Part shown: piece after piece, positions 6,501 through 24,895 of the stretch | Layout of the letters: the number at the start of each line of letters is the position of its first letter | Numbering within the stretch: position 1 is the first letter of the stretch | IMG/VR virus record: IMGVR_UViG_3300005613_000026 | Coordinates: 23,576-87,575 of that record | Reading direction: 5' to 3' (one strand) | Length of the DNA: 64,000 nt | DNA from: a virus | The notes under the pieces: generated by a model | The model's database searches: none | Told to the model about the DNA's origin: nothing | The model's input: only the letters and a program-made list of their open reading frames with translations | Translations under genes and position numbers: made by a program

Positions 6501-7880
6501 ATATGACTTTTCTCTTTTGTACCCCTCTGGGTCGAAACCTATAGTACCTATAAATTTTTTAATAAAATCCCTATATATAGTTAAAACAAAACAATCTCTG
6601 CAAGTAGTTTTCTTTTTTCTCTTAGATGAAACTATCCCCATATTCAAAAGAATATAATGTATTTGGTCTATTAATTTCTCATTTGATAAACCTAAAGTAA
6701 TACTCATTTTTTTTTCATCCACTTCTACGCAACCATCTGTTTCATAAATGCCCCTTAAAAAAGCAGCAATCACAGGCTTCTCAGAAGTCCTAATAGACAA
6801 TGGTATTTTTTTAGTATGAGCCAAACAATAATCAACGCCTCTATTTAATAAACTTTTTCTATATTTAGTATTATGCACGCAAACACTTCTAGTACTTTCT
6901 CTTCTTTTGTCAAAATAAGTACTAGATTTCATACCATTTTCATCAGCAAACGCACATACATATTCTTCAATATGGTCATCCGCTGTAGTAATCTGTATGC
7001 CATTTTTTTTACTTAAACTTCCGTCTCCATATAAAAGACCTAAAAGATAGGCTTCCTCTATACTCCATTCGCAATTACTTCCAAACATATTCTGATTTTT
7101 AGATAAAACAATAATATCATTATCTGTTATTTTATCTAATCTTTTCCACTCAAAACCACCATCATCACCAACAACAATAATTCTGTGGTTAGGAGTTCCA
7201 GTCAAAGAATAACCATACGAAGTTGTTATTTTTATAGAATCTCTCACCCCATCTCTATAGATATGAGAAGAAACATCTTTATCACTGTCCCCTAGAGGAG
7301 TATAAACATTTATTTGTTTTTCCCTATACTCTTCGCTAGTCATACCCTCTTCAATTTCACCTATTTCAATCATCCCTTCTTCTGTAAGACATAAAGATTC
7401 CTCATTTTGGCACTTGCCTCCTCCTGTCGCACACTTGATAATCCCTCTTTCTTTACCATTTTTCTTTACAACACTTTCTATAATATGCTGCTGATAATCT
7501 CTAGGCTCGAATTCATCAGACATATTATATATATTACTCTTCTCTGTTTTTTTGCGTATATCAATACAATTATATTGAACATTATTCTTTTGAAGATATA
7601 TAAAAGCCTTATGCAAAAGACCTGTTGGAAAATGTAAAGAATTCTTTTTAATATGACATCTACAACTGGCTTGATTCCAGCATACAGTGCTTACTCTACC
7701 ATCCCAATTCTTCTTCCATTCAGGGACATTTTGTCCATCAGTATGTTTTTTCACCATCCAGTAAGCATTTTCAGGGAGATAACCTAATTCTCTCTTAAAC
7801 CCCTGATAAACATCACTGTCCATTCTTCCATCGATATAAGTGACAGTATGATCCACTCTTAAAACGATTGTTCCAGACAA
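3600..7880 (-). CDS. Superfamily 2 DExD/H helicase (UvsW/XPB/ResIII-like), about 510-aa extein, with two inteins
   Basis: PRDYQ (Q motif), ATGGGK|T (I), DEVQH (II), GL|SATPWR (III), DEGVD (V), LQRIGRILR (VI). TTG start preceded by GAGG. Confidence 0.92.
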   Translation of the reverse strand: MSGTIVLRVDHTVTYIDGRMDSDVYQGFKRELGYLPENAYWMVKKHTDGQNVPEWKKNWDGRVSTVCWNQASCRCHIKKNSLHFPTGLLHKAFIYLQKNNVQYNCIDIRKKTEKSNIYNMSDEFEPRDYQQHIIESVVKKNGKERGIIKCATGGGKCQNEESLCLTEEGMIEIGEIEEGMTSEEYREKQINVYTPLGDSDKDVSSHIYRDGVRDSIKITTSYGYSLTGTPNHRIIVVGDDGGFEWKRLDKITDNDIIVLSKNQNMFGSNCEWSIEEAYLLGLLYGDGSLSKKNGIQITTADDHIEEYVCAFADENGMKSSTYFDKRRESTRSVCVHNTKYRKSLLNRGVDYCLAHTKKIPLSIRTSEKPVIAAFLRGIYETDGCVEVDEKKMSITLGLSNEKLIDQIHYILLNMGIVSSKRKKKTTCRDCFVLTIYRDFIKKFIGTIGFDPEGYKREKSYKYYSDFINRKNNSNKDLIYNQNSKIREIRFIIKDILGSKKYRRIIEEESNTKINVLRSWSDRSYWRNPGRSSLSSFVKWAEYRFIYQEEGAFHPGYSRLKSLIAELIEVIDEKYYYDKIKSIEVCESDNYDFVIPKTHSFVSNGMINHNTAIASGIIAGLGVSPTVFYVPSIDLLKQAKDEIERFVRYHRIPVKVGMVGGGEKSIEDITVMTNQTAVRALGGVWKKFDDEDVTKDNTDISDMRKDIKDLIQDSRLMICDEVQHWAAETCQIISDNSISCQYRYGLSVGPSSNLELYGWIYEDGDIRSIEDLWEDVEEYSDLLLFRKQNYEIIDISSLDIESRGWDNIGKEFVWKKINKIIRHKCDKKIRKIYYRGKNNILVTDDHSVFCIPRSSDRNRSDFECLKSCDIKRKDLLLADNGENWNKDDVKDFDIFQILLKNYRNPDKIRVKVRLEGLIYSDLGMSKSRFYHIIRRNSGIDLKTYIKYKDILPKPEKIYTEGANGVCIYPHFSFRSISFLIGFFIGDGWFDGNRINFAVENSILEEFINYVNSIGVISVNPKIRKMEGASSEVRISSALLSCLMKYFLGKKYCYEKTIPSEIIFKWDKFYKMKLINGMMMSDGCFSSKQDRNRKEARYTTTSICLANDFSCLLRSLGVSSSLSIRKPQKGGIINGRQIFAKRDSYQVIFSMNSLLGNNIGRNGEVKKFKNINCNEYIINKIVEEEYSDYVYDLEMEGHPSFVVNGVLVHNSATPWRDLGDDILIDACFGKMIANISASFLIQRGYLVRPHIYFCNMNNMRGIGKSPYVTVYKKAIVENEMRNNSILNFANYFRSQGRKILILVKQVAHGKLLENMIPDSTFLYGGTGKKKRASHLDKMREGDPSVTIASVIFDEGVDCKPLDTLILAGGGKSPTRALQRIGRILRTYPGKQDAIAVDFMDGCRYLQGHSRKRERIYKTEEEFIIERPE
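4257..5645 (-). mobile_element. Intein 2 (463 aa, Ser1) with LAGLIDADG endonuclease, inserted just before motif III (SAT)
   Basis: YGL|SVGPSS...VTDDHS...LIGFFIGDG...INGMMMSDG...VYDLEMEGHPSFVVNGVLVHN|SAT. Confidence 0.92.
6054..7412 (-). mobile_element. Intein 1 (453 aa) with LAGLIDADG endonuclease, inserted in Walker A
   Basis: GGGK|CQNEESL...TGTPNH...LLGLLYGDG...FLRGIYETDG...YDFVIPKTHSFVSNGMINHN|T. Confidence 0.93.
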
Positions 7881-7885
7881 ATTAA

Positions 7886-8074
7886 TTACCTCAACTCATT
7901 AATACTAACATCATCTACTACTAACCCCAGTTGAGGCAGTAATTTCTTCTTTTTCTTTTTTTTATTCTTCTTTTTATCTTTATTATTAAACATAGGAAGA
8001 GGATTTTCAAGAGTTGGATAATCCTTAAAGTCAGATGACATTTTTCTAAAAGAAGTGGTTTCAATGATTTTCAT
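7886..8074 (-). CDS. Small basic hypothetical protein with a poly-Lys tract
   Basis: 62-aa ORF overlapping the upstream stop, in operon orientation. Confidence 0.55.
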   Translation of the reverse strand: MKIIETTSFRKMSSDFKDYPTLENPLPMFNNKDKKKNKKKKKKKLLPQLGLVVDDVSINELR

Positions 8075-8372
8075 TTTTACTCTTAATCTCCCCGTATCTC
8101 CGATACATTTTTGTTTTTACTACTTTAATCTTGTCTAGTGCTTTACCGTATCTTCCATCCACTAAATCACTTATGGCAAATTTAATGGAAATCATAATAT
8201 CCACCATAGATTGTTTCTTTTCTTTATCAGGAATTGTTACTAATTTTTGCTGAACTCCTAATAATTTATGATAAGCTACTATATGCTTACCCTGTTTTTC
8301 AATAAAATTAACTATATTCTCAAGCATATTTAAAGTGCGATTGAGAAATTGCTCATATTCTGCATTATCCAT
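8061..8372 (-). CDS. Hypothetical protein (103 aa, probably helical)
   Basis: GAGG SD upstream of the ATG; no motif recognised. Confidence 0.7.
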   Translation of the reverse strand: MDNAEYEQFLNRTLNMLENIVNFIEKQGKHIVAYHKLLGVQQKLVTIPDKEKKQSMVDIMISIKFAISDLVDGRYGKALDKIKVVKTKMYRRYGEIKSKNENH

Positions 8373-10046: not shown

Positions 10047-10784
10047 TCACCTTTTTAACCTAGACTGTGCCTTGAACTTCTTCCAAGCCCTCATATGATG
10101 CTGTATCATTAGCATTTTCTTAGATCTGGTAACCCCCTTACTATTTATTCTATATTTTATCAAAGGTTCTTGAAAATTATGAAACTTTTTCCTAGCAGAA
10201 ATGGCTCTAAGCCATAAATCGAAATCGGGCACAGTCCAAATCTCCTTATCTGTAGAATACCCTCCTAGTTCTAAAAAATCCTTCTTACGGAACATCGTGG
10301 TAGGGTCCATTATAGGATTTCTACAATCTTCTATCACCATTTTCGTTATATCGACATGGTTCTCTGGGGGGTAGTTAGAAACCCTAATATCATTTCCTTC
10401 TTCATCTATATTTATTACCCAAGAGCCTATACAAAAAACATCTGGATTTTCATTGAGATACTCTACTTCTTTACTAAATCTATTTGGGAAACTAATATCA
10501 TCCGCATCTTGAATGGCTATATATTTACCCTCCGCTCTTTCAACAAGCTCGTTTCTGCGAGCAGATATTCCCTCTTTGCTCCTTTTGATAGAGATAAAGA
10601 AACTTCCAGGAAAATTATTCATTACTCTACTTACTATTTTCTCTGTATTATCAGTACACCCATCTAATATTATACCTACTTCAAAATCTCTAAAATCTTG
10701 CATGAGAAGAGATTGAAGAGATTCCTCAACGAACTTTTCTCCGTTGTAAACAGTCATAATCGCACTAACTAATGGTTTTGCCAT
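10047..10784 (-). CDS. Glycosyltransferase family 2
   Basis: LVSAIMTVYNGEKF...ILDGCTD...YIAIQDADD...DFDLWLR. Start placed at MAKPLVS (10784) rather than the track's 10829. Confidence 0.9.
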   Translation of the reverse strand: MAKPLVSAIMTVYNGEKFVEESLQSLLMQDFRDFEVGIILDGCTDNTEKIVSRVMNNFPGSFFISIKRSKEGISARRNELVERAEGKYIAIQDADDISFPNRFSKEVEYLNENPDVFCIGSWVINIDEEGNDIRVSNYPPENHVDITKMVIEDCRNPIMDPTTMFRKKDFLELGGYSTDKEIWTVPDFDLWLRAISARKKFHNFQEPLIKYRINSKGVTRSKKMLMIQHHMRAWKKFKAQSRLKR

Positions 10785-11877
10785 TTTTAAAAACCTCATC
10801 ATAAAGTGGATAAATTTTAGACCAATCATGTTGCAAAACTTGTTTTCGTCCCTCTTCTACAAGTTCTTTTCTAATATCCTTATTATATACTGTTTTACTA
10901 ATTGATCTCACATATTCATCTATTTTAATTGCTCCTGGACACTTATACCCCTTCATATCCTCTTTACTAACTTCAACAACAATACCACCTTTTTTATCTT
11001 TCACATCTCCTACATTCATAGAGACCCAAGGCAAACCAGCAGCTTGAGATTCTAAAATAACCAATGGAGATACTTCTTTTTTAGAAGCGAATACAAAAGC
11101 ATCTGCACACTTAAAAGCCGCAACAACATCTTCTCTAGGTAAATCCCTAAAAAAGTAATTTTTATATATAGACATAATGTTTCTGCAATTAGACAAGAAC
11201 ATCTCTCCATATTTGTATTGAATAGTATTAAAAACAAACGCAACTGCTGATTCTTTCTTAAAATTGAGATCTCCATGATTCCCTATTTTACATATAGAAG
11301 AAATAAGCTCTTGACCTTTTCCATAAAAGAACTGCCCCACATTTAAAAATAAATACTTCTCTTTTATACCGTATTTTTCTCTAAAATTTATAGCGTTATT
11401 ATCAAACTCTGATAAATCAATACCGTTAGGAATGACTATTGGCTCTAAACAATTATATAAAGCCCATTTATAATCTATAGTGGTACTAGAATGAGTAATT
11501 ATATTAAATTTTTTCTTATTATTTTGCAATATTCTTAAAATATCAGGATGAAACTGCATATGATATGCCCCTACAAGAGCCACAGATACATCAGGTTTAA
11601 TCTTTTTTATATTTTGGAGTATTGCATCAAACCCCCAAAAAGAATCGCTATAAATCCATATATGCTCGTTCTCATTAACTTGAGAAACAATATCATCCCC
11701 CTTCTTGCATTTGAAATACTCTACATTGTTTTCGCAAAAATAAGAATTCACACTAAAACTATATACTTTTACACTATATTGACACGTATTAGCCAATCTT
11801 TCTGAAACTTGCTTAATAACCGTCTCAGATCCCCCTACGTGTCTATGAGAAAAATTACAAAATATTCCTAATTTCAT
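10765..11877 (-). CDS. Glycosyltransferase family 4 (GT-B)
   Basis: VGGSE..., VIPNGIDLSEF, KGQELI, ADAFVFAS..E..PLVILESQAAGLP. Confidence 0.9.
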   Translation of the reverse strand: MKLGIFCNFSHRHVGGSETVIKQVSERLANTCQYSVKVYSFSVNSYFCENNVEYFKCKKGDDIVSQVNENEHIWIYSDSFWGFDAILQNIKKIKPDVSVALVGAYHMQFHPDILRILQNNKKKFNIITHSSTTIDYKWALYNCLEPIVIPNGIDLSEFDNNAINFREKYGIKEKYLFLNVGQFFYGKGQELISSICKIGNHGDLNFKKESAVAFVFNTIQYKYGEMFLSNCRNIMSIYKNYFFRDLPREDVVAAFKCADAFVFASKKEVSPLVILESQAAGLPWVSMNVGDVKDKKGGIVVEVSKEDMKGYKCPGAIKIDEYVRSISKTVYNKDIRKELVEEGRKQVLQHDWSKIYPLYDEVFKNGKTIS

Positions 11878-12581
11878 ATTTTATCCTTAATTTGATTTCC
11901 TAATACCAAACTATCAGCTTTTTTCATATTATCTTCCGCCCAAAGAGGCTGTAGATTATTTAACGACCAACAATATTTAAACTCTACATCATTTACACTG
12001 TTATATTTAAAGAAACTCAATGGAATAATATGATCTATATGCCATTCTTCCCTATTCTCCCAAGTCATACCATGTTTAAATAATCTCTCTAAATGAGCTT
12101 TTAATTTTTCCACCGTGTATCCAACAATATCTTCCCAGTGTCTACCACCTTTAGATATATTATTATCTCTCAAAGAATTTCGAATACTAGAAGCCATATT
12201 TAAATTCAATCTAAACATAGTATCTTCTTTATATCTTAGATTGCGATATTTTAATACATTTTTTAATATCTTTTCTTTATTCTTTTGATAATATTCTTTT
12301 CTACTCCTACTAGTTTTATCATTATACTCCTTTACTTTATCTGGGTTTTTCTTTCGATATTCTCTTTTATTCCTGTTTAATCTAGTTTTATTCTTATTTC
12401 GATATTCTTTATTATATTCTCTAATCTCTTCACGATGCTCTTCTCTATATTTTTTCTTTTTTCCCCTCAAATCTTTTTTATGAGTTTTAGAATAATGTTG
12501 CCAACAACATTTATCAGAACAATATTTTGTTTGTCTCCCAATTAATTTCCTATCACACATTAAACATTTTTTATTGTTCAT
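11874..12581 (-). CDS. HNH homing endonuclease with a basic helical N-terminal region
   Basis: CLMC...YCSDKC; WHIDHIIPLS...CWSLNNLQPLWAEDNMKK. Start placed at MNNKKC after GGAG (track gives 12611). Confidence 0.85.
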   Translation of the reverse strand: MNNKKCLMCDRKLIGRQTKYCSDKCCWQHYSKTHKKDLRGKKKKYREEHREEIREYNKEYRNKNKTRLNRNKREYRKKNPDKVKEYNDKTSRSRKEYYQKNKEKILKNVLKYRNLRYKEDTMFRLNLNMASSIRNSLRDNNISKGGRHWEDIVGYTVEKLKAHLERLFKHGMTWENREEWHIDHIIPLSFFKYNSVNDVEFKYCWSLNNLQPLWAEDNMKKADSLVLGNQIKDKI

Positions 12582-12780
12582 AATTAACTCCATATGCCAT
12601 TCTCTGAACATTTTCTATATCGACATCTGTCCCCATATGTCCTAATCTTTTTATCTCCCATACCAATTTAAAGTGACCTTCATCTGGATTTGTTGGTTTT
12701 AAAAATAATTCACACAAATTTTTTAACACTTTTTTATTTTTCTTTACTCATTTTTATCTCCTTAATACATTATAATAACA

Positions 12781-12807
12781 TTATAATATTATTATTAAAA
12801 TCCTTTT
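12781..12807 (-). promoter_or_regulatory. Putative promoter AAAGGA-N15-TATAAT, overlapping an 11-bp tandem repeat
   Basis: Second copy of the motif at 10015-10041; ACATTATAATA x2 at 12767-12788. Confidence 0.45.
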
Positions 12808-12893
12808 TTATTTTTGAATAAATTAAAAATTTATGTTAAATAGATATATCTGTCGATAATAAAAAATAGTGACATATTTTATGGAGATTAATT

Positions 12894-13046
12894 ATGGAAA
12901 AGAAAAATAAAAATATAATGATTATGGTATCAGAAACAATGCATCAAAAGTTCTTAAAAGCCTGTCATAACGATGAACAGACTATGAGTGAACACTTAAG
13001 AGAATGTATTAAAAATAAAATTAGAAAATCAGAAAAGAAGATTTAA
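12894..13046 (+). CDS. Ribbon-helix-helix (CopG/Arc-like) DNA-binding protein, 50 aa
   Basis: GGAG SD; MEKKNKNIMIMVSETMHQKFLKACHNDEQTMSEHLRECIKNKIRKSEKKI shows an alternating hydrophobic strand, a helix, and a 'TMSE.LR..I' second helix. Absent from the ORF track. Confidence 0.7.
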   Translation: MEKKNKNIMIMVSETMHQKFLKACHNDEQTMSEHLRECIKNKIRKSEKKI

Positions 13047-13756
13047 TTATCCATACAAAAGACAGGTATATTATAATTTTTCCACTTTTCTTGGAATTTT
13101 TGCCAGCTATTCATAAAATACTTTCTTCTATTCCCTCTTAACGCTAAATCATGTTTTTGATGATGTACAATCGGATTGTAATTCCATCCTATTTTATATT
13201 TTTTTTGATAAGCTTTGAAACAAAAATCTGGATCTTCAAAATATGCTGGACTAAAAATCTCATCAAAACCCCCCAATTCTTCAAAAATAGGTTCTCTAAT
13301 CATCATGCATCCACAGCCCACGTAATTAAAAGATTCTTTAGAAGAATTTATTTTTTGATAAGGATAGAAATCTTTTTCCCTGAGTCTCCACGCCTCTTTT
13401 CCGACAACCTCATATCCTTTCTCAAAAAAATCAAAATAACTATCTTGCCAACCTGATAATACAAACTGATCATTATCTAAAAAACATACAGACTTAGCGT
13501 CTGGGTATTTCATTCTAGATATTGTATATCCTTGATTCCTACCCTTAATTATTCCCACATTTTCAATATTAAATTCGACAACAATATTATTGTGCTTCTT
13601 TTCTAATTCATTAAGATATATCGTTGTGGCAGCTGTAGAATTGTTATCAATTACAATTAAATTAAAATTTTTTGTATATTTATAGAGATGATCTAAACAT
13701 TTTTTTGTGTGATGGAGATTATTATAAGTTAGAACAACTATATTTAACTGACTCAT
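13043..13756 (-). CDS. Glycosyltransferase family 2
   Basis: IVVLTYNN...VIDNNS...FLDND...GGFDE.F.PAYFEDPDFC. Confidence 0.9.
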   Translation of the reverse strand: MSQLNIVVLTYNNLHHTKKCLDHLYKYTKNFNLIVIDNNSTAATTIYLNELEKKHNNIVVEFNIENVGIIKGRNQGYTISRMKYPDAKSVCFLDNDQFVLSGWQDSYFDFFEKGYEVVGKEAWRLREKDFYPYQKINSSKESFNYVGCGCMMIREPIFEELGGFDEIFSPAYFEDPDFCFKAYQKKYKIGWNYNPIVHHQKHDLALRGNRRKYFMNSWQKFQEKWKNYNIPVFCMDN

Positions 13757-13785: not shown

Positions 13786-16700
13786 CTAATTAGTTATCGT
13801 AATTGGGTCGCTAGTTACTGAAGTCCCGAAGTCATATGTGTCATAAGGAACAAGCTCTGCATACCACTGTTGACCTGCAGCCAATAATCTTGCATCTATT
13901 ATGGAGCTATGAGTTCCTATACTCGTCCTAATATCTCCAGAAGAATATGTGTTGTCCTCAAAGACCTCAAAATAAGAATCCGTTGAAGGATCATTATATG
14001 TATAAACATGTGTGAATGTTTCTTCTCCAGGTAATTTTCGATACCATTTCACTGTTGTCCTGTCTTCTTGAGCAGTAGTGTCTACATCTCCAAGAGCAGT
14101 TATCTCAAAATCAAAAAATGTCCAATTTAAAGTTATATTTGTGTCTTTAGGAAAAACAGTAGCAGAATATTCTACATCATAAATTTTTGGAAGAGAATTC
14201 TGAACAACCACTTCATCTAAAATCACAGAATCTCCTGTAGCAGTTGCCGTGCGTGGCACAACTTGAACAGAAATCCTGTTATTGTATCTCAAACCATAAT
14301 CCCTGAAATTCTCAACTCCAATTTCGTTTACTCTTAATTGCTCAATTGGCACCCCGCTAGGAGTGTCTATACCATAGATACCCCTCTTAAATGTATCTCC
14401 ATTTACATACCATATGATTTCAGAATTATTTTCTGAAGTATCAGCATGAAAACTTTCGCTAAAAGGAGGAGATATAACTGCCATTGTATCACTAGCTAAT
14501 CTACTAGTTATATTACCATCTGAATCTTGAGCCTTTACGAATATAGAGTCCATTACTGGCACAGACTCTATAACCTCTACAACACCCGATTTTGTTCTTG
14601 TCCCAAAAATAGAACCATCGCTTACTTCTATTTCATAGTAAACTTTATCTCCCGCATTTAATATTGAGACTCCTTGTCTCTTTACCCAATCTACAACTGT
14701 CATCCCTGCTAAATCATCACTATCAGGATAGGACAAAGAAGTCTTTGTGTAAAAAGGATCTGTAGGATCTGCTATATCATTCCATTTTCTTAGATTGGAT
14801 AAATAATCTATCCTATTACCATTAATATACCAGTGTATTTTTGTTTGATCTAAATCCTCTGGATCGTAATTAGTATCAAAATAAGTATAAGAAACTTCTA
14901 TAATACTATAACGATGAGGGACCTCATTTGTAATAACAACACTACTTGCTTCTGGAGATGCTTTAGATACTGGTGGAAGTAAATCTTTACCAGTTGTGTA
15001 CTGATAACCAATTCCATATATCTCTATTGGAGTGGACTCTGATTTATTAGATATCTTTAAACCTACCTTATAGTTACTATCATTTAAAATACCTATCTTA
15101 TAATCTCCATCAACATAATCACTATCTATAGAAGGACCTAAAATAATCAATCCATCTCTAGGATATAATTTATATTGATCAGTTGAAATAATTTCATCAT
15201 TCTTGTTATATATGATTACTGAAGCATATGGGTCCCATGGCCCAGAATGAGCTTTCAATGTAAAATTATCTACTTTATCTAATGACTCTTGTGCAAACTC
15301 GGTAATATCTTGAGAAAATCTAATAGGTATAATAACTTTTCCATTTTGGTTAACAGAAGGTTTCGAATTAAAATGATAATCTTGCCAATTACTAGAATTA
15401 GAATTTGCCACACCAATTTTTATTTGTTCATCATTAACTTCATTAGCATCAACTCCTAATACAACTTGATAAGGAGAAACACCTTCGTCCTCCAGATTGA
15501 GATAAAGATAAACAATGTTCTCTGTATTATAAATAATTCTAACAGACGTTAACGACGGAGACGGTGGAGCTGTCAGATACTCGTCTCCCAACTCTCCACT
15601 ATTAAAACCAGTTATCATAACTATTTTGAATTTAATATATCTAGCATAAAGTTCATCAAAATCTGCTGTTTCATTATACTGATACTCAGTTGAAATAGAC
15701 GTATAATTATAACCATCAGTACTCGTCTCTATACTCCAACTAGCACTTGCATTACTTATTGGAATATTAAAATTAGCTGTTATACTATTAACAAGAACCT
15801 CTGCTCCCAAATCCTTCACAAACTCATATGTCCCATATCCTAAAGCCCCAACTGCTTCTGAGTAAAATATACCAGAGACATCATCTAAATAATCTTCACT
15901 TACAATTGTTAAAGCCTGTCCTCCTGTCTCAAATGCAATTTTATTAATATCCCTAGTATCTGATGTATTAGCTTTTACAGATAAAGTAGGAGGATCTACA
16001 ATGCCCATATTAGAAACAAGCACTGGAACCTCTTTATCCCCATCAATGTTATTAATTTCAGTTATCGCATTATCAACAGTAGCGGTAGATATTGAAGATT
16101 CATTATCTGTAAATAAATAAATCAATTTCTTCTTAGCATCTATATCTGTATCAGACATCAAATCAGATGCTGACACGAGGGAATCATACATCAAAGAAGC
16201 CCCAAATGGAGTAGAATAAGAAAGGTCATTGAGATTACTTATAACACTATCTACAGAACCATTATTAGAACCGATAATCCTATTGATAGAAGGTATCCAA
16301 TCAACATTGTTATAACAATCAATTACCAAATTACTAGGAATTCTTTTCTTTTCTTTTCTAAATAAAGAATTAACACTATTACCATCCTCAATGACAGGAT
16401 TTGTTCCCCTATCTACAGTTTGGCCATATGGTCCATCAGGATCATCAGAAACAACAGTAACCTGAATAGATATCTTATATGGTCTTCTAATTTGCCCAGT
16501 TGATATTAACATAGTCACTGGATTTTTACCTGGATTAGTTATCTGCTCATCCCCTGAAATTCCCCCTTGAGAAACTATATAACTATCCGTTATATCGCTT
16601 CCCGCTCTTTCTTGGATAGTTGATGTTTCTTCAAATATATCTTCAGAACGAGGTAATAAAGTTATAGCCGTTCTTCCATTTTCAACAGTTATCCTGTCAC

Positions 16701-16944
16701 TAACAAAAAGAACAGGATGAACGATTGTCTTGTCATTTATAGTATTAGCGGATTGCCTCTGATAACTCTCACTTTCATATAATTCTGTATCACTATCAGA
16801 AACATCCTCGAACTTTAGAAAACCTCTTACAATGATATCCACTTCTTCTGTAAGATAATGTCCATTGCGCTTAAGCTCTATAGGAACTGTTAATGACTGT
16901 TTCCCGTTTAATTTTAATTCTATTGTTTTATATTCTTGTGCCAT
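13786..16944 (-). CDS. Putative virion structural protein (1052 aa): C-terminal half of a vWA domain plus Ig-like repeats
   Basis: GASLMYDSL...KKLIYLFTD...INKIAFETGG; YTYFDTNYDPED..IHWYING-type Ig modules; no signal peptide. Confidence 0.6.
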   Translation of the reverse strand: MAQEYKTIELKLNGKQSLTVPIELKRNGHYLTEEVDIIVRGFLKFEDVSDSDTELYESESYQRQSANTINDKTIVHPVLFVSDRITVENGRTAITLLPRSEDIFEETSTIQERAGSDITDSYIVSQGGISGDEQITNPGKNPVTMLISTGQIRRPYKISIQVTVVSDDPDGPYGQTVDRGTNPVIEDGNSVNSLFRKEKKRIPSNLVIDCYNNVDWIPSINRIIGSNNGSVDSVISNLNDLSYSTPFGASLMYDSLVSASDLMSDTDIDAKKKLIYLFTDNESSISTATVDNAITEINNIDGDKEVPVLVSNMGIVDPPTLSVKANTSDTRDINKIAFETGGQALTIVSEDYLDDVSGIFYSEAVGALGYGTYEFVKDLGAEVLVNSITANFNIPISNASASWSIETSTDGYNYTSISTEYQYNETADFDELYARYIKFKIVMITGFNSGELGDEYLTAPPSPSLTSVRIIYNTENIVYLYLNLEDEGVSPYQVVLGVDANEVNDEQIKIGVANSNSSNWQDYHFNSKPSVNQNGKVIIPIRFSQDITEFAQESLDKVDNFTLKAHSGPWDPYASVIIYNKNDEIISTDQYKLYPRDGLIILGPSIDSDYVDGDYKIGILNDSNYKVGLKISNKSESTPIEIYGIGYQYTTGKDLLPPVSKASPEASSVVITNEVPHRYSIIEVSYTYFDTNYDPEDLDQTKIHWYINGNRIDYLSNLRKWNDIADPTDPFYTKTSLSYPDSDDLAGMTVVDWVKRQGVSILNAGDKVYYEIEVSDGSIFGTRTKSGVVEVIESVPVMDSIFVKAQDSDGNITSRLASDTMAVISPPFSESFHADTSENNSEIIWYVNGDTFKRGIYGIDTPSGVPIEQLRVNEIGVENFRDYGLRYNNRISVQVVPRTATATGDSVILDEVVVQNSLPKIYDVEYSATVFPKDTNITLNWTFFDFEITALGDVDTTAQEDRTTVKWYRKLPGEETFTHVYTYNDPSTDSYFEVFEDNTYSSGDIRTSIGTHSSIIDARLLAAGQQWYAELVPYDTYDFGTSVTSDPITITN

Positions 16945-16949
16945 TATAT

Positions 16950-19900
16950 TTATCCGAAATTAATGTCTATAGAATCATCTCCTCTTGCGTCAGTATACCC
17001 CCCTATAATATAGATATAAGGACTTCCCGAGACATTACAATAAGCTGCGCTTGCTCCATGTTTAGCTGTTAACATTCTAGTAAGTAAATTAGAACTATCT
17101 TCATTTTCAAAACTAGCATTATAATCAAAGTTGTTTGATGAAACAGTTATTTGCTCTACGGCATCTAAACTAGAAGAAGAACTATCGACTCCTCCAAAAA
17201 TATAATAATCAGCATTATCAGTAGAAGGAGAAGGATCGTATTCAGCCATAGCAGATTGAAATTTAGGAGAAGGAAAATCTCCTAGATAACCACTATTAAA
17301 TTGTATATATCTTTGAGTACCTGTTCTTGTCATTGACAATTCTGGTGATATGCAAAAATCATCACTAGGATATACAAAATTACCTCCAGATTCTTTTGCC
17401 CCATTAAAAACAATAATCTTATCATCGTATTTTATAGATAAAGGAAATATCCTATTATAAGTTAAAATTTCATCTGTAAATAATATATCAGAATAAGCCC
17501 ACTGATCATCTTCAATACAATATCTGAGTATCCTATTATTGTATTCTCTAATATCAGAAGAAGAAGATGTAATAGACACTCTTTTTATTCCACTTAGTAC
17601 ATAAATATAATTCTTTGCACCAATAACGAAATGTTGAGCAGTTCCAAACGCTACTCCCAATCTATCTTCAAACGCTCCTGTACTAATTACAGGAAATGGA
17701 GTCAAAGATTCCCATAATCCAGTGTCTGTATGATACACCTCATTAGCAAGACTAACATCTGCCTCTCCATTTTCTAATAAATTTAAAGAGATACCTCCAA
17801 GAGTATAAATATCTGTTCCTATAACAACCGTTGAACCTCCGAACCTAGGAGTAATCATATTAGAAACAGTGCTCCATTCATCATTATCCGCATCATACCT
17901 TTCTGTAATAGATGATATATCTGCACCATTCCCCTTCATCCCTCCAGCTACATATATATAAGATCCAACTGACCCCACAAACGCATTTCCTCTACTTTGA
18001 GTCATTTCTCTAACAAGGGTCCACTCATCATTGTTTATATCATATCTTTCCATTGTTCTAGAATAAGGAGTTACAACCGCACTTGATATAGTAGTTACAA
18101 TACTAGGATTAGAAACCGTATCAACAGTCTCATCCTCTCTATTTATAGTTAAATTAACCTGAACAAAAACATTCCTATCAGTCTCTCCGTTTTCGTCATA
18201 AACCGAATACATCTTAATAGTTTCAGTTGTAGTTTCTTCTGGAACCCTAGAAGCAGATAAACGAACAGTTACATAACTAAACCCATCTGACTCAGTTGCA
18301 GTATAATAAATATAACGACTTGCTATAAACAAATTATCTATAGTATTATTTCCAATTGATACATATATCGGAGTATCATCTGGTATAGATTCCCCTCTCC
18401 ATAAAACTCTCACCTTAACATATACATCTGAATCATGTTTAACCAGAGTGTTGCCATCTGCATCTAAAAAATTATCATTATATACTTCTATTCTTTCCCC
18501 ATCGTCAATCACCCATTTAGAATCTATAACTAGAGCCAAGGGTTCTTTTAAGGCTATTGGGCAAGGAGGAATACCATTATAAAAATCTCCCCCTCCAAAA
18601 AGAACAAGAGGCTGATCATTAACAAAAATTGTTGTTTCTCCCTTTGCGTATACTACAGGAGACCATCGTGGTAAATCACATTGAGTTAATCCTTTTGTAT
18701 CATCTTTTGCAAGACATAAACATTTATTAATTTCATTTTCATCATCACAATCAGAATTATTAATAGCTCCCGATTCAGAAGCAAATTTATTCGCCCTTAT
18801 ATAAAAATATGTGATATCTGACTCTTCTTCATCATTAAGCTGAATGTAAGCATCTCCATAATCTACAAAACCATTTCTTCCTATATTAAGAACATATCTG
18901 CCAGTGTAAGGATCTAATTCTTCCGAAACTTCCCCATGAATAATTTCTAAATTATCATCTCCTAAATTAACATGAACAACTTGCCCAGAACTTAATTCAA
19001 ATACTTGAGAATCATCCTGATCAGCACAATTAATAAAACAAGTAGAAGCTTTAAAATCACTGGTAGTATTTGCTGGATCTCTAGAAATTTTCATCCTTTT
19101 ATAATCAGAACCATCTGTCCATAAAGGATAAAGATCAGCATCTAACCATCCAGCCCCTCTCCACGCTAGAGAAGAACCATATCCTCTCCATCCTCCATCT
19201 ACTTCCATAAGAAAACGAGCTTGAAATTTCTCAAAACTATCTGGATCATATTCTAGTCTTATATATTGTTTTGCAGTAGATGACAAACCATTATAAACTA
19301 TTGTTGCACTAACTTCTTGCACTTCATCTATCTTTGTGCTTCCTCTTTGAATAGGACCCAAAAATACACTTCTGGCTACACCATTCCTAGTATAAGAATA
19401 AACTCCATTAGGAATAGGAACATTATCTACAGAATACAAATTTCTTTCATTCCCCTGAATAGGAACTATTTTCCATTGAACAACTGTAGAATCATCGGGA
19501 TAAGTAACCAAAGATTTATCAGTAGGATAATCAGGATGTAGAATTCTAGCAATAGCTTGTTGTTCCGCTACGCTTTTTCCATCTATTTCTGGATCTCCAG
19601 CTTGTATGTCTATTTGCAATATACTTTGAAATAATATATAAATATCTTTTACCGAAGAATACCCAGCATTAGATCCTTTCACAAATAATCTAACAGCCTG
19701 AGGCATATCAGGAGCATAAATAGGAATATCAACATACGAAATAGTTGTAGAGACAGTCTCTCCTCCTACTTCTCTTGTCTCCGTCCCTAGTAAAACTCCC
19801 ATTGTAGAATTAGGAGGAGTAACAATAGTACTAACTTTAGTCTTAGGTCCCTCATAAGGTCCAGCAGAAGTTGTGTTGCCCGCATTAGCACACAAATTAG

Positions 19901-22900
19901 TATTATCAGCATCCCATACTGCAACATTGATAGACCCAGAAGAAATGGGCTCCCCTTTATATTTTAATTTAGCTCTAGCAACAAATGGAGTAGAAGACCC
20001 CATATAAACTCCATTAAACATTTCATTATCTATAACTAAATATTTTTCCTTAGTATAAGGATCAGTTTTTTGCACATAACATCTCTGAGGAACTTTAAGA
20101 TTATTTTTATTCTCAAGCTCAATTTCCCATGGATTAGTGAATCTAACATTAATAGTATGAGATAAATATTCAAATATATTATCTGAAGAAGAGTTACTTT
20201 CTTGAGTAGAACTCTCTCCATCAACTCCTTCAATCGCGGCTTCTATAGCTGAGGCATATTCTGCAAAAGGCCCACTAACAGCGACATTATCAGAACCAGA
20301 AGAAGGGGACACATACCCAGTATTCGGAATATAAGATTTAATTTGAACATCAAATTCTGCATTAGAAATCTGAGAGATAATACGAGTATCAGTTGTCATC
20401 CTAAGAGTTGCTTTTAAAACTCCCCCCTCTGTTCTTGTAACAAAGAAAGTATAAGCATCACTGTCGTCAAATTCTAAAGTAGAAGTAGTATTAAAAACAT
20501 CATCTGCTTGAGTCTCTCTCGTTATAGTTGCGTCTATATACATGCGAATAGGAGTGTCCTCAGAAATAGCCACACCGTATTGATCAGTAATCGATCCATA
20601 AAGGACAACAGTATCATCAAAATAAGCTTCTATATCTTCAGGATTCTTTTGAGGCTGATCCCACTGTAAACTTACACTATTTCCATCAATAAGTTCATAT
20701 CTAAGATTATTCACATCAATTAATGGTATCGCATTATCATCTGCATCAGAGCTAGGAGTAGATACTAAAAACAGAGGTTCAGAAGCCCTTCCATACTTAT
20801 CAATGTTCACGATGGAATAGTATGCATCTACATCATTATCTATATTTCTATGAACAAAATTAGTAGAAGTAGGTTCTCCCGAAAAAACCATAGAACCATT
20901 CGAGTAACCACTCTGATCAACAGATGGATAATCTAAAGATGAATAAAAAATTCTTATTCTTTTAATTCTATTATCACTTGGATTTACCCATCTTAAAAAT
21001 GTTTTTTTATTACCCGCAATAATGGAAGAATACCCTGAAACTTCTATTGGAGAGGGAAGAGAAGAACTCAAAGAAACAAAATAAGTATCATCTTCTGTAT
21101 CTGGAATTGTTATTTCTAATACAGTTGCATCTTCTGCAAAACAAAAATTGCCCAAAGAATTATAAGTATAAATTCTATAATAATAAGTCTCTCCTAAAAC
21201 AAAATCATAAGCATCAGATACATAATGTATCCCTGAAGAAACAGTTTCGTCGTATATAATATCCCCATCTTCTTCCCAAGAAGGAATTCTAATAGAATTG
21301 CGAACAATTCTGACACCCCCACCCTCAAAATTATAATCATCGGGAATTTGAAATTTTAATACTACTAACCTATCCCCATTGTCTTCTTTAACGCCAATAT
21401 ATTCCGTATCAATTTGCTCATTTTCTCCATTATATATTGGATTTTCAGTAAGATAGGAATTTATGTAACTAGAACTTCTAGCCTCATTATGAACACTAAT
21501 TTCTGTCATCTTACCTCTAAATGGATATATGCCAAGAGCAGTCCCGTCTTCCCCTATATTTACGTTATAATTAACATCGCTAAAATGAGAAGCAACCCCT
21601 AATAACGCCACTTGCTCTGATTGTCCATTTAAATAAAATGTAACATCAGAACCTCCATTATAAGTAACCGCTACGTGCTGCCACTTATAAGACTGTAAAG
21701 TTAAAGTAGAAGCTTCCGCGGTAGCCCCATCTCCGATATTACAACCTAAGTTGCCACTTGAATTTGTGGCAAAAGCATAATTGAAAGATGTAGTATTATC
21801 CCTACTCAAGAAAACAACCTCTGACACATTATATGGATACACCCATGCCGATATTGTAATGCTATTATCAGATCCAGTAAACAATATTTCTGTTCTATTG
21901 TTAGGATCAGAAGCACTAGCGTATCCTCCTTCTCCGTCAAAAAATAATCCTGAAGATCCTTCTGGAACAAATTCCGAACTATACCATCTTGGATCTTCTC
22001 TTGTAAAAGATAAATCTAAATTACCGACAAAATCAAATATATTAGACCCCTCTCCTTCACTAAGATGCCATAGCCCTAAAACACTTGAATCTTTATTAAT
22101 ACCATTTGCAACTAAAGGAGAATTATCCTCAGGAAAAGTTTCGAATATAGAAATACCTCTAGGAACATTTCTAGTTTTTGGAGTAACCTTTATAGTTCTT
22201 CCTTCACTAACAGCTAAATCTGAATTATAAGTATAAACTCTGTAATAATAATCTTGCCCTTCCGTTAAGCCAGTATCCAAAACTCTACCAATAAATCCAT
22301 CAGACACAGAGGTCCCAGAACCTGGAGTATATGCAAGCGGATAATCTTCGTTACTCCTTACTACTCTAATACCAGAATAATTTGCATCAGCATCAGTTGA
22401 AAGAATAGAATTTACTGTATTAGTGTCATTCGTGTCTATATTATCTTCTAATGCCCCAAAAAAAAGCACATTAACATATACAGCTCCATATTCAATTAAA
22501 TTATATTTAATTTCACCTGGATAATTGTTCTCTATCTTAGTAACAATGTCTTTAGCTATATCATGTCTAAAATTATTATTATCATTCCACGTCATACTGC
22601 CACTCTGATCCATAACAATGGTAACTACGCGATCATCTAATTCTAATTCTATTTTTTCAGTTCCATCTCCCTCATCTGTAACTTTTGTATTTTTCAATTT
22701 CTGATTTAAAGTATCTGAAAAATAATTCAAGACTTCAGTAGTAGATTCTGTAGGATTCACTACAATTTTCTCTTCTGCATCCTGAACAGCATCAAAATCA
22801 CTATATATACGATGAGCCTGCCTTTTATCATAATTGATATACCATTGTCCTCTGGACAAAGAAGATTGACCATTAATGGCTTCGTAATATACTTTAGTAT

Positions 22901-22919
22901 TCAAAGATGGCATTAACAT
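16950..22919 (-). CDS. Putative virion/baseplate protein (1989 aa): vWA N-half with DxSxS, FN3-like, LamG, C-terminal Kelch repeats
   Basis: VTIVMDQSGSM; GLWHLSEGEG...TISAWVYP...WQHVAVTY...FYLNG (LamG); YIYVAGG, IYTLGG, YIFGG, IYIIGG (Kelch). Confidence 0.7.
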   Translation of the reverse strand: MLMPSLNTKVYYEAINGQSSLSRGQWYINYDKRQAHRIYSDFDAVQDAEEKIVVNPTESTTEVLNYFSDTLNQKLKNTKVTDEGDGTEKIELELDDRVVTIVMDQSGSMTWNDNNNFRHDIAKDIVTKIENNYPGEIKYNLIEYGAVYVNVLFFGALEDNIDTNDTNTVNSILSTDADANYSGIRVVRSNEDYPLAYTPGSGTSVSDGFIGRVLDTGLTEGQDYYYRVYTYNSDLAVSEGRTIKVTPKTRNVPRGISIFETFPEDNSPLVANGINKDSSVLGLWHLSEGEGSNIFDFVGNLDLSFTREDPRWYSSEFVPEGSSGLFFDGEGGYASASDPNNRTEILFTGSDNSITISAWVYPYNVSEVVFLSRDNTTSFNYAFATNSSGNLGCNIGDGATAEASTLTLQSYKWQHVAVTYNGGSDVTFYLNGQSEQVALLGVASHFSDVNYNVNIGEDGTALGIYPFRGKMTEISVHNEARSSSYINSYLTENPIYNGENEQIDTEYIGVKEDNGDRLVVLKFQIPDDYNFEGGGVRIVRNSIRIPSWEEDGDIIYDETVSSGIHYVSDAYDFVLGETYYYRIYTYNSLGNFCFAEDATVLEITIPDTEDDTYFVSLSSSLPSPIEVSGYSSIIAGNKKTFLRWVNPSDNRIKRIRIFYSSLDYPSVDQSGYSNGSMVFSGEPTSTNFVHRNIDNDVDAYYSIVNIDKYGRASEPLFLVSTPSSDADDNAIPLIDVNNLRYELIDGNSVSLQWDQPQKNPEDIEAYFDDTVVLYGSITDQYGVAISEDTPIRMYIDATITRETQADDVFNTTSTLEFDDSDAYTFFVTRTEGGVLKATLRMTTDTRIISQISNAEFDVQIKSYIPNTGYVSPSSGSDNVAVSGPFAEYASAIEAAIEGVDGESSTQESNSSSDNIFEYLSHTINVRFTNPWEIELENKNNLKVPQRCYVQKTDPYTKEKYLVIDNEMFNGVYMGSSTPFVARAKLKYKGEPISSGSINVAVWDADNTNLCANAGNTTSAGPYEGPKTKVSTIVTPPNSTMGVLLGTETREVGGETVSTTISYVDIPIYAPDMPQAVRLFVKGSNAGYSSVKDIYILFQSILQIDIQAGDPEIDGKSVAEQQAIARILHPDYPTDKSLVTYPDDSTVVQWKIVPIQGNERNLYSVDNVPIPNGVYSYTRNGVARSVFLGPIQRGSTKIDEVQEVSATIVYNGLSSTAKQYIRLEYDPDSFEKFQARFLMEVDGGWRGYGSSLAWRGAGWLDADLYPLWTDGSDYKRMKISRDPANTTSDFKASTCFINCADQDDSQVFELSSGQVVHVNLGDDNLEIIHGEVSEELDPYTGRYVLNIGRNGFVDYGDAYIQLNDEEESDITYFYIRANKFASESGAINNSDCDDENEINKCLCLAKDDTKGLTQCDLPRWSPVVYAKGETTIFVNDQPLVLFGGGDFYNGIPPCPIALKEPLALVIDSKWVIDDGERIEVYNDNFLDADGNTLVKHDSDVYVKVRVLWRGESIPDDTPIYVSIGNNTIDNLFIASRYIYYTATESDGFSYVTVRLSASRVPEETTTETIKMYSVYDENGETDRNVFVQVNLTINREDETVDTVSNPSIVTTISSAVVTPYSRTMERYDINNDEWTLVREMTQSRGNAFVGSVGSYIYVAGGMKGNGADISSITERYDADNDEWSTVSNMITPRFGGSTVVIGTDIYTLGGISLNLLENGEADVSLANEVYHTDTGLWESLTPFPVISTGAFEDRLGVAFGTAQHFVIGAKNYIYVLSGIKRVSITSSSSDIREYNNRILRYCIEDDQWAYSDILFTDEILTYNRIFPLSIKYDDKIIVFNGAKESGGNFVYPSDDFCISPELSMTRTGTQRYIQFNSGYLGDFPSPKFQSAMAEYDPSPSTDNADYYIFGGVDSSSSSLDAVEQITVSSNNFDYNASFENEDSSNLLTRMLTAKHGASAAYCNVSGSPYIYIIGGYTDARGDDSIDINFG

Positions 22920-22927
22920 TCTCCATT

Positions 22928-24895
22928 TTATATTTTAATGGCTGATGGGAAAGACATATACTCATCATTGTCTACTGTCTCCCAAATAACGAAATTATCT
23001 ACATCTCCACCCGCTGATGACATCACTAAAAAATAATTATCACCATAAGTCGCAGCAGAAACATTCCCGTCATCATCCAAACGTGTTATATTAAAATTAT
23101 ACCAATCATCTTGCACAACTTGATTAATAGTATTCTTATAATCATAAACTAATAAAGGGTTAGATGGATTATTTGAGGATTCGTATAGCTGCATATGTAT
23201 GGTAACATAAGGACTAACGGTCTCATTTGGACCCTCTGCATAAGGAGTCTCTGAATCAACCCCTATATATATCTTATCAATAGCACACTGTTTTTCCTTT
23301 ATTCTTATTCCTAAACTATGCTCCTGATTATCGGGAATAGTTACAGTTGTATTCACCCACTGCCATTGCTCTGCTGAAGGATCTCCTAAAGTTTCATTAA
23401 GAGTTCTTACAACCTCTCCATCTAAAAGAATCTCCATAGAAATTGTATTTGATTCTAAAGATATACATCTTATCCATAGATCATACGTATCATCATTAAC
23501 AGCCTTAATAGGGTAGCACACTACAGGAAATCTAGAAAGATTGTCATTATGTAATATCATATATCCATTCCCTGTAGAACCTCCTACTGTATCCGCAAAA
23601 TACAATATATTTCCACTTCTAGTACTAATAGAAGAATAATTAGTAGCGTCTATTACTACAGGCTCCGTATTATATAAAGACCAGTAATCTCTAGAGTTAG
23701 ATCCTACCCTTCTTAAATACACACTTGCTTTTGTGGGAACAAATTCTCCATTTACTTCAAATTCTTGAGCCAGCCTCAACCTAATTAAAGGATCTTCAAA
23801 TATATAAACTTTCCCTTCTCCAGAACTTCCAGCTGAAGAAGCATCTGCTCCTACTGCTAAAAACCTATTGTAAATAGTAACAGAACTACCGAAACTATCC
23901 CCCGTAGACAATCCTGATACATATATTTTTTTTAAATGTCCCCAATCTCTTTTTTTGTAAAAAACATCAGCCACTCCCTTATCGTCAGAACCAACTGAAC
24001 CAACTATCAAAAAATCTCCTTCCAACTCAACGCTACATCCAAATCTATTACCTTCATAACTATTTTCATTGACCCCTGTAACTTTTTCCACTTCATACCA
24101 TCTATCTACCTTTTTATACACATAAACCGCTCCAGAATTTACAATAGAATTAGCATCTTCATATTGTGCCCCAATAGCTAGATAAGAAGAAGATACTGAT
24201 ATTGATCCGCCAAACTGAGCATTTTCCTCCCTATTAGAAGGATACAAATTATAGGCAAATTGCCAAACCTCAGAATCAGAATCAAAGGAATACACATAAG
24301 CAGCCCCACTGCCATTGCTATTCCCTGTCGCTCCGACTATAATATCTTCGCCATCAAACGCTACTGATGCTCCAAAATAGTCTCCTATTGTAGGAATCTC
24401 CGAAACAATTTTCTGATATTGAGTCCATCCATTAGTATTGTTAGTAGAATTTCTCTTAAATATATAAATAGCACCTTTACTACTAGAATCTCCTGGAGCC
24501 CCAACTACAAGATACGCTCCAGAAATAGATACTGAAGATCCGAACAAAGATCCAGACACAGCATCTGACCCTACCACAGTATAATAGTTACTCCACGTAT
24601 CTCCTCCATCATCTTTGTAAATAGCCGCCTCTCCCTTATCTCCATTCTCATTTTCTGCTCCAATAACTATATATCCATCATCCATATCTACAGAACAACC
24701 AAAGCCACTCATGAGCAAAGATAAATCTTTAATCTGACTCCATTCCTCATTTAATCCTCTTTTATAAAGATAGGCAGCATTATTTCCTCTTTCGCCTACA
24801 ACTAAATAATAACCCCTTAAAGAACAAGCACTACCATATCTATAATTATCTAGACCTGTTGCATTAGTTAAAATATTATGTTGAATATACGCCAT
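22928..24895 (-). CDS. FG-GAP repeat beta-propeller protein with a C-terminal carbohydrate-binding-like beta domain
   Basis: About seven repeats of FGxSV.I.G.YLVVGAP...GA.Y.F; YDLWIR...WQW...HSLGI...IDKIYI. Confidence 0.8.
   Translation of the reverse strand: MAYIQHNILTNATGLDNYRYGSACSLRGYYLVVGERGNNAAYLYKRGLNEEWSQIKDLSLLMSGFGCSVDMDDGYIVIGAENENGDKGEAAIYKDDGGDTWSNYYTVVGSDAVSGSLFGSSVSISGAYLVVGAPGDSSSKGAIYIFKRNSTNNTNGWTQYQKIVSEIPTIGDYFGASVAFDGEDIIVGATGNSNGSGAAYVYSFDSDSEVWQFAYNLYPSNREENAQFGGSISVSSSYLAIGAQYEDANSIVNSGAVYVYKKVDRWYEVEKVTGVNENSYEGNRFGCSVELEGDFLIVGSVGSDDKGVADVFYKKRDWGHLKKIYVSGLSTGDSFGSSVTIYNRFLAVGADASSAGSSGEGKVYIFEDPLIRLRLAQEFEVNGEFVPTKASVYLRRVGSNSRDYWSLYNTEPVVIDATNYSSISTRSGNILYFADTVGGSTGNGYMILHNDNLSRFPVVCYPIKAVNDDTYDLWIRCISLESNTISMEILLDGEVVRTLNETLGDPSAEQWQWVNTTVTIPDNQEHSLGIRIKEKQCAIDKIYIGVDSETPYAEGPNETVSPYVTIHMQLYESSNNPSNPLLVYDYKNTINQVVQDDWYNFNITRLDDDGNVSAATYGDNYFLVMSSAGGDVDNFVIWETVDNDEYMSFPSAIKI

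Follow-up and report, generated by a model that had tools for sequence, protein, structure and literature searches.

Two adjacent giant genes of a huge-phage sequence probably hold the two halves of one discontinuous von Willebrand factor A domain

Two adjacent giant genes in a 64,000-nt stretch of viral DNA (positions 23,576 to 87,575 of IMG/VR record IMGVR_UViG_3300005613_000026; hereafter the window) encode the proteins P0001 (1989 aa) and P0002 (1052 aa), each of which contains one half of a von Willebrand factor A (vWA) domain. Both proteins are probably the fission products of one giant huge-phage protein of ~3000 residues with a discontinuous vWA domain and its metal ion-dependent adhesion site (MIDAS). 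A preliminary description, made from the letters of the window, had already proposed that a vWA domain is split over the two genes. This proposal held: P0001 matches only positions 2–54 of the Pfam profile VWA_2, and the fold of the C-terminal half (C-half) is matched in P0002. Pfam, structure alignments and a profile of the C-half agree that neither protein contains a complete vWA domain. The genes, their junction and the two halves are located as follows.

16950–22919, minus strand: gene for P0001 (1989 aa), with an N-terminal region, the vWA N-terminal half (N-half), an FN3-like stretch, LamG, an unassigned middle part and a C-terminal Kelch propeller
13786–16944, minus strand: gene for P0002 (1052 aa), with an immunoglobulin (Ig)-like N-domain, the vWA C-half, a discoidin-like jelly roll and an FN3/Ig-like array
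16942–16952, minus strand: junction of the two genes, with the TAA stop at 16950–16952, a 5-nt gap and the ATG at 16942–16944
22467–22637, minus strand: vWA N-half, P0001 residues 95–151 (β1, α1, β2), from Pfam VWA_2 and the predicted interface list
22596–22610, minus strand: MIDAS motif D104-Q-S106-G-S108, conserved across relatives and pairs
15850–16296, minus strand: vWA C-half, P0002 residues 217–365 (β3, α2, α3, β4, α4, β5, α5, β6, last helix), from model, structure match and co-fold
16195–16203, minus strand: G248-A-S250, the MIDAS Ser/Thr position corresponding to the vWA 'GGT', from conservation
16105–16110, minus strand: T279-D280, the MIDAS Asp position corresponding to the vWA 'TDG', at the end of β4, from conservation and co-fold

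Both fragments had been placed at the right locations in the preliminary description, although their limits had to be adjusted: the C-half begins near residue 217 (DNA position 16296) rather than near 229, and the interface of the N-half comprises P0001 residues 95–151.

The N-half is recognisable by its sequence. Residues 100–154 of P0001 match positions 2–54 of the 107 positions of VWA_2 and none beyond (23.9 bits, E 6.8e-5). In P0115, a relative that holds both proteins in one chain, the same profile matches over positions 2–53 with 27.6 bits. The residues D104, S106, G107, S108, W111, D113 and R118 are invariant in 42/42 relatives of P0001. The C-half profile gave no match when run on P0001, and the 60 matches listed for the P0001 family profile against the PDB were Kelch proteins only. 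When each fragment was searched against the PDB as a single sequence with phmmer, only chance-level matches were obtained (E 0.22–1.3).

Upstream of the C-half, P0002 contains no DxSxS motif. The other MIDAS positions are retained: all 83 relatives of P0002 have G248 and D280, at least 90% conservation is seen for S250 and T279, and the distant relative P0084 has the canonical sequences FGGT and NTDGEEN. The positions of the MIDAS Ser and Asp were set by motif, secondary structure and the interface list, not by residue-level superposition. Judged by these motifs, the elements expected of a MIDAS (DxSxS, a Ser/Thr at the GGT position and an Asp at the TDG position) appear to be complete when both proteins are considered.

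In the AlphaFold2 model of the whole P0002 (83 sequences, predicted local distance difference test (pLDDT) 82.7) residues 231–364 form an α/β unit with only three or four strands. The conserved segment 213–230, with the invariant residues W216 and P218, is coil when P0002 is modelled alone and lies in the interface of the co-fold described below. Residues 185–375 were also modelled alone by AlphaFold2 (pLDDT 71.5), and this model was compared with 48,161 PDB representatives. The structure matches were almost exclusively vWA/I domains, comprising 53 chains with Z of at least 8 (Z 8–11.7). The root-mean-square deviation (rmsd) of these superpositions was 2.1–3.3 Å with ~123–139 residues aligned, the highest Z of 11.7 corresponding to 2.1 Å over 129 residues. 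The matched structures include ITIH1 (Z 11.5), Ssl1/p44 (11.4), a bacterial vWA domain (11.4), the integrin α1 I domain (10.6) and VWF A1 (10.2), as well as Rpn10, collagen VI, TRAP, ANTXR, Mfa5, PitA and SpaC at Z 8.4–9.7. All vWA alignments begin at model residue 33–34, which is P0002 217–218, and leave the initial 52–57 residues of the single-domain vWA chains unmatched (aligned ranges: BatB 54–206, Rpn10 56–192, LapA vWFA 58–193). Since the alignments begin at vWA residue 53–58, the elements β1-α1-β2 are absent from the C-half, and this is exactly the part found in P0001. A single contiguous vWA domain of ~180–200 residues is not what these proteins contain; the family is a discontinuous or split variant.

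A Foldseek search of the viral library BFVD gave three unnamed matches at E≤0.001, followed by giant-virus vWFA proteins at E 0.01–0.09. The top matches to the C-half model were A0A248SJB6 (pieces 2 and 3 of a very long protein that the library divides every 1032 residues) and A0A8F8SM99 (E 7.7e-5 to 1.6e-4, 18–23% identity); both might be relatives in catalogued viruses. The ESM Atlas features of P0002 195–370 point to VWA clusters (0.84), which we take as a lead only. With the whole 1052-aa model, Foldseek returned Ig/FN3 arrays only and was uninformative on the vWA part.

Residues 185–375 of P0002 and 1–175 of P0001 were co-folded by ESMFold2 in three runs, accompanied by three controls. 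As anticipated in the preliminary description, the fragments co-folded: the interface score ipSAE was 0.80, 0.65 and 0.67 (median 0.67) versus 0.00 in all three controls, and the runs agreed in at least 78% of the contacts. Among solved complexes 58 of 80 reach the ipSAE mark applied here, among mismatched pairs 2 of 110. Within P0001 1–175 the predicted interface is limited to residues 95–151. The best pairs are P0002 275–278 with P0001 99–104 (β4-β1) and P0002 221–224 with P0001 140–142 (β3-β2), which is the strand order of a vWA domain, and residues 277/278 of P0002 contact D104. These pairs and the superpositions of the C-half agree with the vWA fold, whose central sheet has the order β3-β2-β1-β4-β5-β6 and is flanked by helices. 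The five MIDAS positions were also followed in 81 paired halves. D104 is present in 80 of them (one gap), S106 and S108 are each Ser in 79 and Thr in one, S250 is Ser in 80 and Thr in one, and D280 is found in 81/81, as is G248. Conservation of this degree argues against a chance likeness.

Several results weigh against the assignment of the two pieces to one vWA domain. The VWA_2 score of P0001, 23.9 bits, lies under the curated cutoff of 27 bits. Pfam detects no vWA match in the C-half of P0002, P0115, P0126 or P0084, and the P0002 family profile gave 0 matches in the PDB. Profile searches of each fragment, which the preliminary description had recommended, hence recovered the N-half below the cutoff and did not recover the C-half. 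Foldseek of the domain model against the PDB gave no match at E≤0.001; the best E value was 2.7e-3, and the vWA entries (ITIH1, BatB, TFIIH p44, TEM8) were mixed with LarE entries. In the whole-protein model residues 206–212 of P0002 (LVIDCYN) form a strand for which no partner strand is visible. The pLDDT of the partner in the co-fold is only 50–53, and the pass may reflect the memory of the model for the vWA fold rather than binding. The model is familiar with this fold, and what the pass indicates is therefore that the two pieces resemble one vWA domain, not that they bind in the cell. Finally, covariation between the halves, calculated as mutual information with average product correction on the 81 pairs with kinship ignored, is weak: the 25 best predicted contacts have a mean rank fraction of 0.38 (z −2.09). 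In the same calculation six of the ten most strongly coupled pairs fall into the interface sets versus a background of 0.29 (p 0.038), and nine of the top 25 do so (p 0.27).

The segment 206–212 was also considered as a β1 strand of P0002's own. This was rejected because it is coil in the domain model, the vWA alignments start at 217–218, and the co-fold interface starts at 213.

If the two pieces no longer cooperated, the N-half of P0001 would be a vestige or would have acquired a new role, and P0002 217–365 would be a self-sufficient, reduced α/β domain. This would agree with the fair confidence with which P0002 alone is modelled in this region (pLDDT ~75–89 in 10-residue blocks) and with the fact that hidden Markov models (HMMs) see no vWA domain in residues 217–365. 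However, a vestige would not keep the DxSGS motif in 42/42 relatives and in 79–80 of the 81 pairs, and the C-half retains the MIDAS Ser and Asp, which are useless without DxSxS. Moreover, the vWA alignments leave the place of β1-α1-β2 empty and the co-fold puts the N-half exactly there, with the controls at 0.00. We therefore regard a loss of cooperation as distinctly improbable. We infer instead that P0001 and P0002 would come together in the cell and form a composite, putative MIDAS that would bind metal.

The relatives of the two proteins show how such halves can be arranged. We found 83 relatives of P0002 and 42 of P0001, on contigs of up to 548 kb. Fused homologues, for which the preliminary description had suggested to look, exist: P0115 (3047 aa) and P0126 (3260 aa) hold both proteins in one chain and align to P0002 end to end. 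In a library of 1.84 billion proteins, the C-half profile matched 195 representative proteins (E≤0.001). Among the 266 proteins collected, 71 have both halves, 151 the C-half only and 41 the N-half only. In the 71 single-chain relatives the halves are 1457–2881 residues apart (median 1897) and in none of them (0/71) contiguous.

Nine IMG/VR loci with the P0002 family were found. Six are split like the window, with the halves in neighbouring genes whose overlaps and junction frames differ between the loci, and three are single open reading frames (ORFs) of 2975–3968 codons with both halves. Eleven further loci were retrieved with alignment A7 of a class of 1420–1564-aa proteins described below; none belongs to that class itself, and all are distant fused forms with both halves in single ORFs of 2680–3271 codons. 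One of these eleven lies on the same contig as locus L007, and the distinct loci with an uninterrupted ORF number 13. Exactly one N-half and one C-half were found in the 87.6-kb source record of the window and in each of five related records, among them two complete ones of 548 kb and 461 kb. A tblastn search of P0001 and P0002 against 50,697 phage records gave no match. The PHROGs matches of P0001 are limited to two families without an assigned function; P0002 has none.

Two irregular reading frames were seen among the related loci. At L002 (~8001–8187) the P0002 homologue is open only from 8187, and the tblastn match begins at 8001. The P0001 homologue of the complete 461-kb record is matched at its N-terminus in two pieces (G003:C1:165849-166357), with one TGA and one TAG inside.

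In the fused forms the last Kelch blade (YIYxxGGY) is followed by a linker of ~20–30 residues and then by the Ig-like domain (LDGKQS). The stop codon and the new start of the window fall in this linker between the Kelch and Ig-like domains, and no sequence has been lost. A tree of the C-half was calculated with FastTree from 191 unevenly sampled sequences, leaving out 31 shorter matches, and was midpoint-rooted. Fused forms are present on all its deep branches. The window-type split forms are found for the most part (78/81) in one clade (support 0.91), which includes three fused forms; the remaining three have a fused form as their sister. Other proteins with the C-half only form clades of their own, distinguished by length. 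One class comprises proteins of 1070–1096 aa with a Kelch propeller before the C-half (the class of P0084), the other proteins of 1420–1564 aa with the C-half at ~670–780. Together the classes are represented by P0084, P0210, P0213, P0220, P0223, P0224 and P0226 and by proteins of the series P0184–P0212. Both classes are known as called proteins and may include truncated or miscalled genes; they suggest independent fissions elsewhere in the insert. From this tree, with fused forms on the deep branches and separate clades of C-only proteins, it follows that gene fission is a derived state in the lineage of the window and, as far as the sequences indicate, probably recurrent in the family.

A search for the genomic context of the P0084 class returned nothing in viral_contigs or metagenome_contigs. 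The protein P0125 (1618 aa), with the N-half and LamG and without Kelch, has the length expected for a partner of the 1070–1096-aa class.

The split could also be unreal, in that a sequencing error, programmed read-through or frameshifting would give one chain of ~3040 aa. The two genes are only 5 nt apart, fused relatives exist, and the frame breaks near the gene starts in a few relatives (L002, G003) would fit such an explanation. However, 81 relatives of 1007–1062 aa, with the C-half at ~138–234, come from many independent assemblies, and six loci share the split with differing junction overlaps and frames. In the window the stop codon is TAA, the ATG of P0002 is in a different frame from P0001, and the other long ORFs all decode normally with translation table 11. 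Read-through or recoding at the junction was rejected on the grounds of the many independent split relatives, the varying junctions and the TAA with a separate ATG, and we hold it to be extremely improbable that the two genes are in fact one.

For the divided vWA domain we propose the following arrangement. In the ancestral protein β1-α1-β2 with the DxSGS motif would have come first, followed by ~1500–2900 residues inserted in the β2-β3 hairpin (FN3-like, LamG, unassigned, Kelch propeller and Ig-like) and then by the segment from β3 to the last helix, which holds the Ser and Asp of the MIDAS. In the lineage of the window the linker that joins the Kelch propeller to the Ig-like domain would have gained a stop codon and a new start, so that the vWA fold and the five-residue metal site would be assembled from two chains. 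In this assembly β1 of P0001 95–151 would insert between its own β2 and β4 of P0002, and P0002 219–225 would be β3. P0001 would give β1-α1-β2 and three metal ligands, P0002 the remaining sheet and two ligands. The N-terminus of P0001 would be bound to P0002 and its C-terminus would be situated where P0002 starts; the vWA core would therefore close the 2000-residue insert into a loop and hold it. The preliminary description had interpreted the two genes as a case of fragment complementation in trans that serves as an assembly clasp. Complementation is supported in silico by the co-fold, but the clasp would not be purpose-built: because the cut fell inside the insert of an already discontinuous vWA domain, the split domain would be a by-product. 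Fission would be tolerable, and the insert cuttable at several places, because the interrupted domain itself would hold the pieces together.

Alternatively, the N-half of one P0001 could complete the C-half of the P0002 of another pair. By such an intermolecular swap the N-half of a fused relative would complete another chain, and the giant proteins would be linked into oligomers, fibres or a mesh, as in donor-strand complementation. Since the halves are always 1457–2881 aa apart, nothing forces pairing within the same molecule, and the co-fold cannot separate cis from trans pairing. Tolerance of fission at several positions would also be expected if pairing between chains were already normal. 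Yet an insert in a hairpin brings the chain back to its start, which favours pairing within one molecule, and the presence of one N-half and one C-half per genome fits either possibility. We consider the swap improbable and retain the assembly of P0001 and P0002 as divided parts of one discontinuous domain.

The other features of the two genes and the upstream neighbour are listed here.

21462–21935, minus strand: LamG_3, P0001 residues 329–486, within the insert (Pfam E 1.9e-17)
16953–18074, minus strand: Kelch β-propeller region, P0001 residues ~1616–1989, the final domain ahead of the fission point (Pfam, family profile, linker alignment)
16435–16944, minus strand: P0002 residues 1–170, mostly β (Ig-like), the closing domain of the insert (DSSP of the model)
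15535–15846, minus strand: discoidin-like (F5/8 type C) β-sandwich, P0002 residues ~367–470, after the vWA part (Pfam E 1.2e-4, under the cutoff; model strands)
22928–24895, minus strand: 655-aa FG-GAP β-propeller protein, the upstream neighbour (FG-GAP_2 E 2.2e-50)

The Pfam match to Kelch covers P0001 ~1616–1800, the FN3-like stretch has weak Pfam matches only, and the Ig-like assignment of P0002 1–170 draws, besides the model, on a weak Big_1 match in the relative P0084. The domain content of the pair is adhesin-like (FN3-like, LamG, Kelch, Ig-like, discoidin-like and an FN3/Ig array), and that of the neighbouring giant ORFs is similar. By its domains the assembly would plausibly be an adhesive surface or virion structure.

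The window has a G+C content of 32% and nearly all of its long ORFs are on the minus strand; the source record of 87,575 bp has an estimated completeness of 18%. Adjoining giant ORFs with adhesin-type domains occupy 24905–51464 on the minus strand. They contain fn3 (1948 aa), Metallophos and Reg_prop (2459 aa), a Rha78A-like Ig domain (698 aa), LamG (321 aa), and an InlB B-repeat-like Flg_new_2 domain (1200 aa). This block of giant ORFs is flanked by several glycosyltransferase genes and an endonuclease VII-like gene (10047–13756 and 51457–52554, minus strand). A 1426-aa helicase ORF at 3600–7880 (minus strand) has a LAGLIDADG homing-endonuclease match at residues 279–427 between its helicase matches; this segment is probably an intein. 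At the related locus L001 the ORF upstream of the P0001 homologue (402–1955) does not encode an FG-GAP protein; it has a long Ser-rich low-complexity run with SSSSQ repeats and a chance DQSGS-like motif.

If the proposed arrangement is correct, a domain of ~190 residues tolerates a multi-domain insert of ~2000 residues in one hairpin, and does so across a large family. A MIDAS shared by two polypeptides would provide a natural module for metal-dependent heterodimerisation and as such be relevant to protein engineering. It would also bear on the way in which huge phages construct surface structures of very large size. For annotation the family represents a gap, as standard HMM pipelines call neither half a vWA domain, apart from the near-threshold match of the N-half.

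With the canonical MIDAS-containing vWA/I domains (VWF A1–A3, integrin α-I, ITIH1, Rpn10, TFIIH p44/Ssl1, BatB) the phage pair shares the fold and the MIDAS positions. The canonical domains are contiguous, whereas in the phage family ~2000 residues lie between β2 and β3 and, in the window, the domain is on two polypeptides. We know of no described vWA domain with a metal site built from two chains. A literature search for split or discontinuous vWA domains found no paper, and a term search of the main text of a 2026 preprint on huge-phage envelope proteins returned one unrelated VWA mention only. Each of the components (vWA domains, nested domains, gene fission) is known; the combination of a vWA domain interrupted by ~2000 residues with a two-gene metal site was not found in print by this search.

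Integrins, too, are nested-domain proteins. The phage C-half aligns to integrin β3 from residue 157 (6bxb_A, 6bxj_A), and the excerpt of PMC11463590 that defines the specificity-determining loop (SDL) of integrin β3 gives it as residues 158–190. By this definition the giant insert would therefore be situated at or next to the SDL site. The integrin SDL comprises ~30 residues, whereas the phage insert comprises ~2000 and a gene boundary runs through it. The likeness consists of the insert site and the adjacent FG-GAP gene; there is no sequence sign of descent from integrins. FG-GAP was found in 4/8 upstream ORFs scanned at related loci (L002–L005), and the relative P0102 has seven FG-GAP repeats fused at its C-terminus (residues ~2170–2430). 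The FG-GAP neighbour together with a β-I-like vWA domain resembles an integrin head, and by analogy it is a possible candidate for an integrin-α-like partner. One could go further and picture the composite vWA domain as the hub of an integrin-like adhesion head, with the upstream FG-GAP propeller docking at the SDL-equivalent site, where the 2000-residue loop would leave the domain, and the metal site forming only when the chains meet; we consider this unlikely. If it were true, assembly of the giant adhesin would be metal-dependent. In a bolder form of this idea the pairing of halves from different molecules would link the giant proteins into polymers, comparable to donor-strand exchange in pili.

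The tip adhesins of Gram-positive and type V pili (RrgA, GBS104, SpaC, PitA, Mfa5) likewise have a MIDAS-containing vWA domain in long Ig/FN3-like adhesive appendages, and SpaC, PitA and Mfa5 are among the fold matches of the C-half model (Z 8.4–8.9). The vWA domain of pilus tip adhesins carries inserted arms. Unlike in the phage pair, these arms are short and lie within one unsplit chain. Donor-strand complementation in chaperone-usher pili and split-protein complementation are comparable by mechanism only: one chain completes the incomplete fold of another, as is predicted for the phage pair. In contrast to a donor strand, P0001 would donate three elements (β1, α1 and β2) together with three metal ligands, and the origin of the complementation would be the fission of a nested domain.

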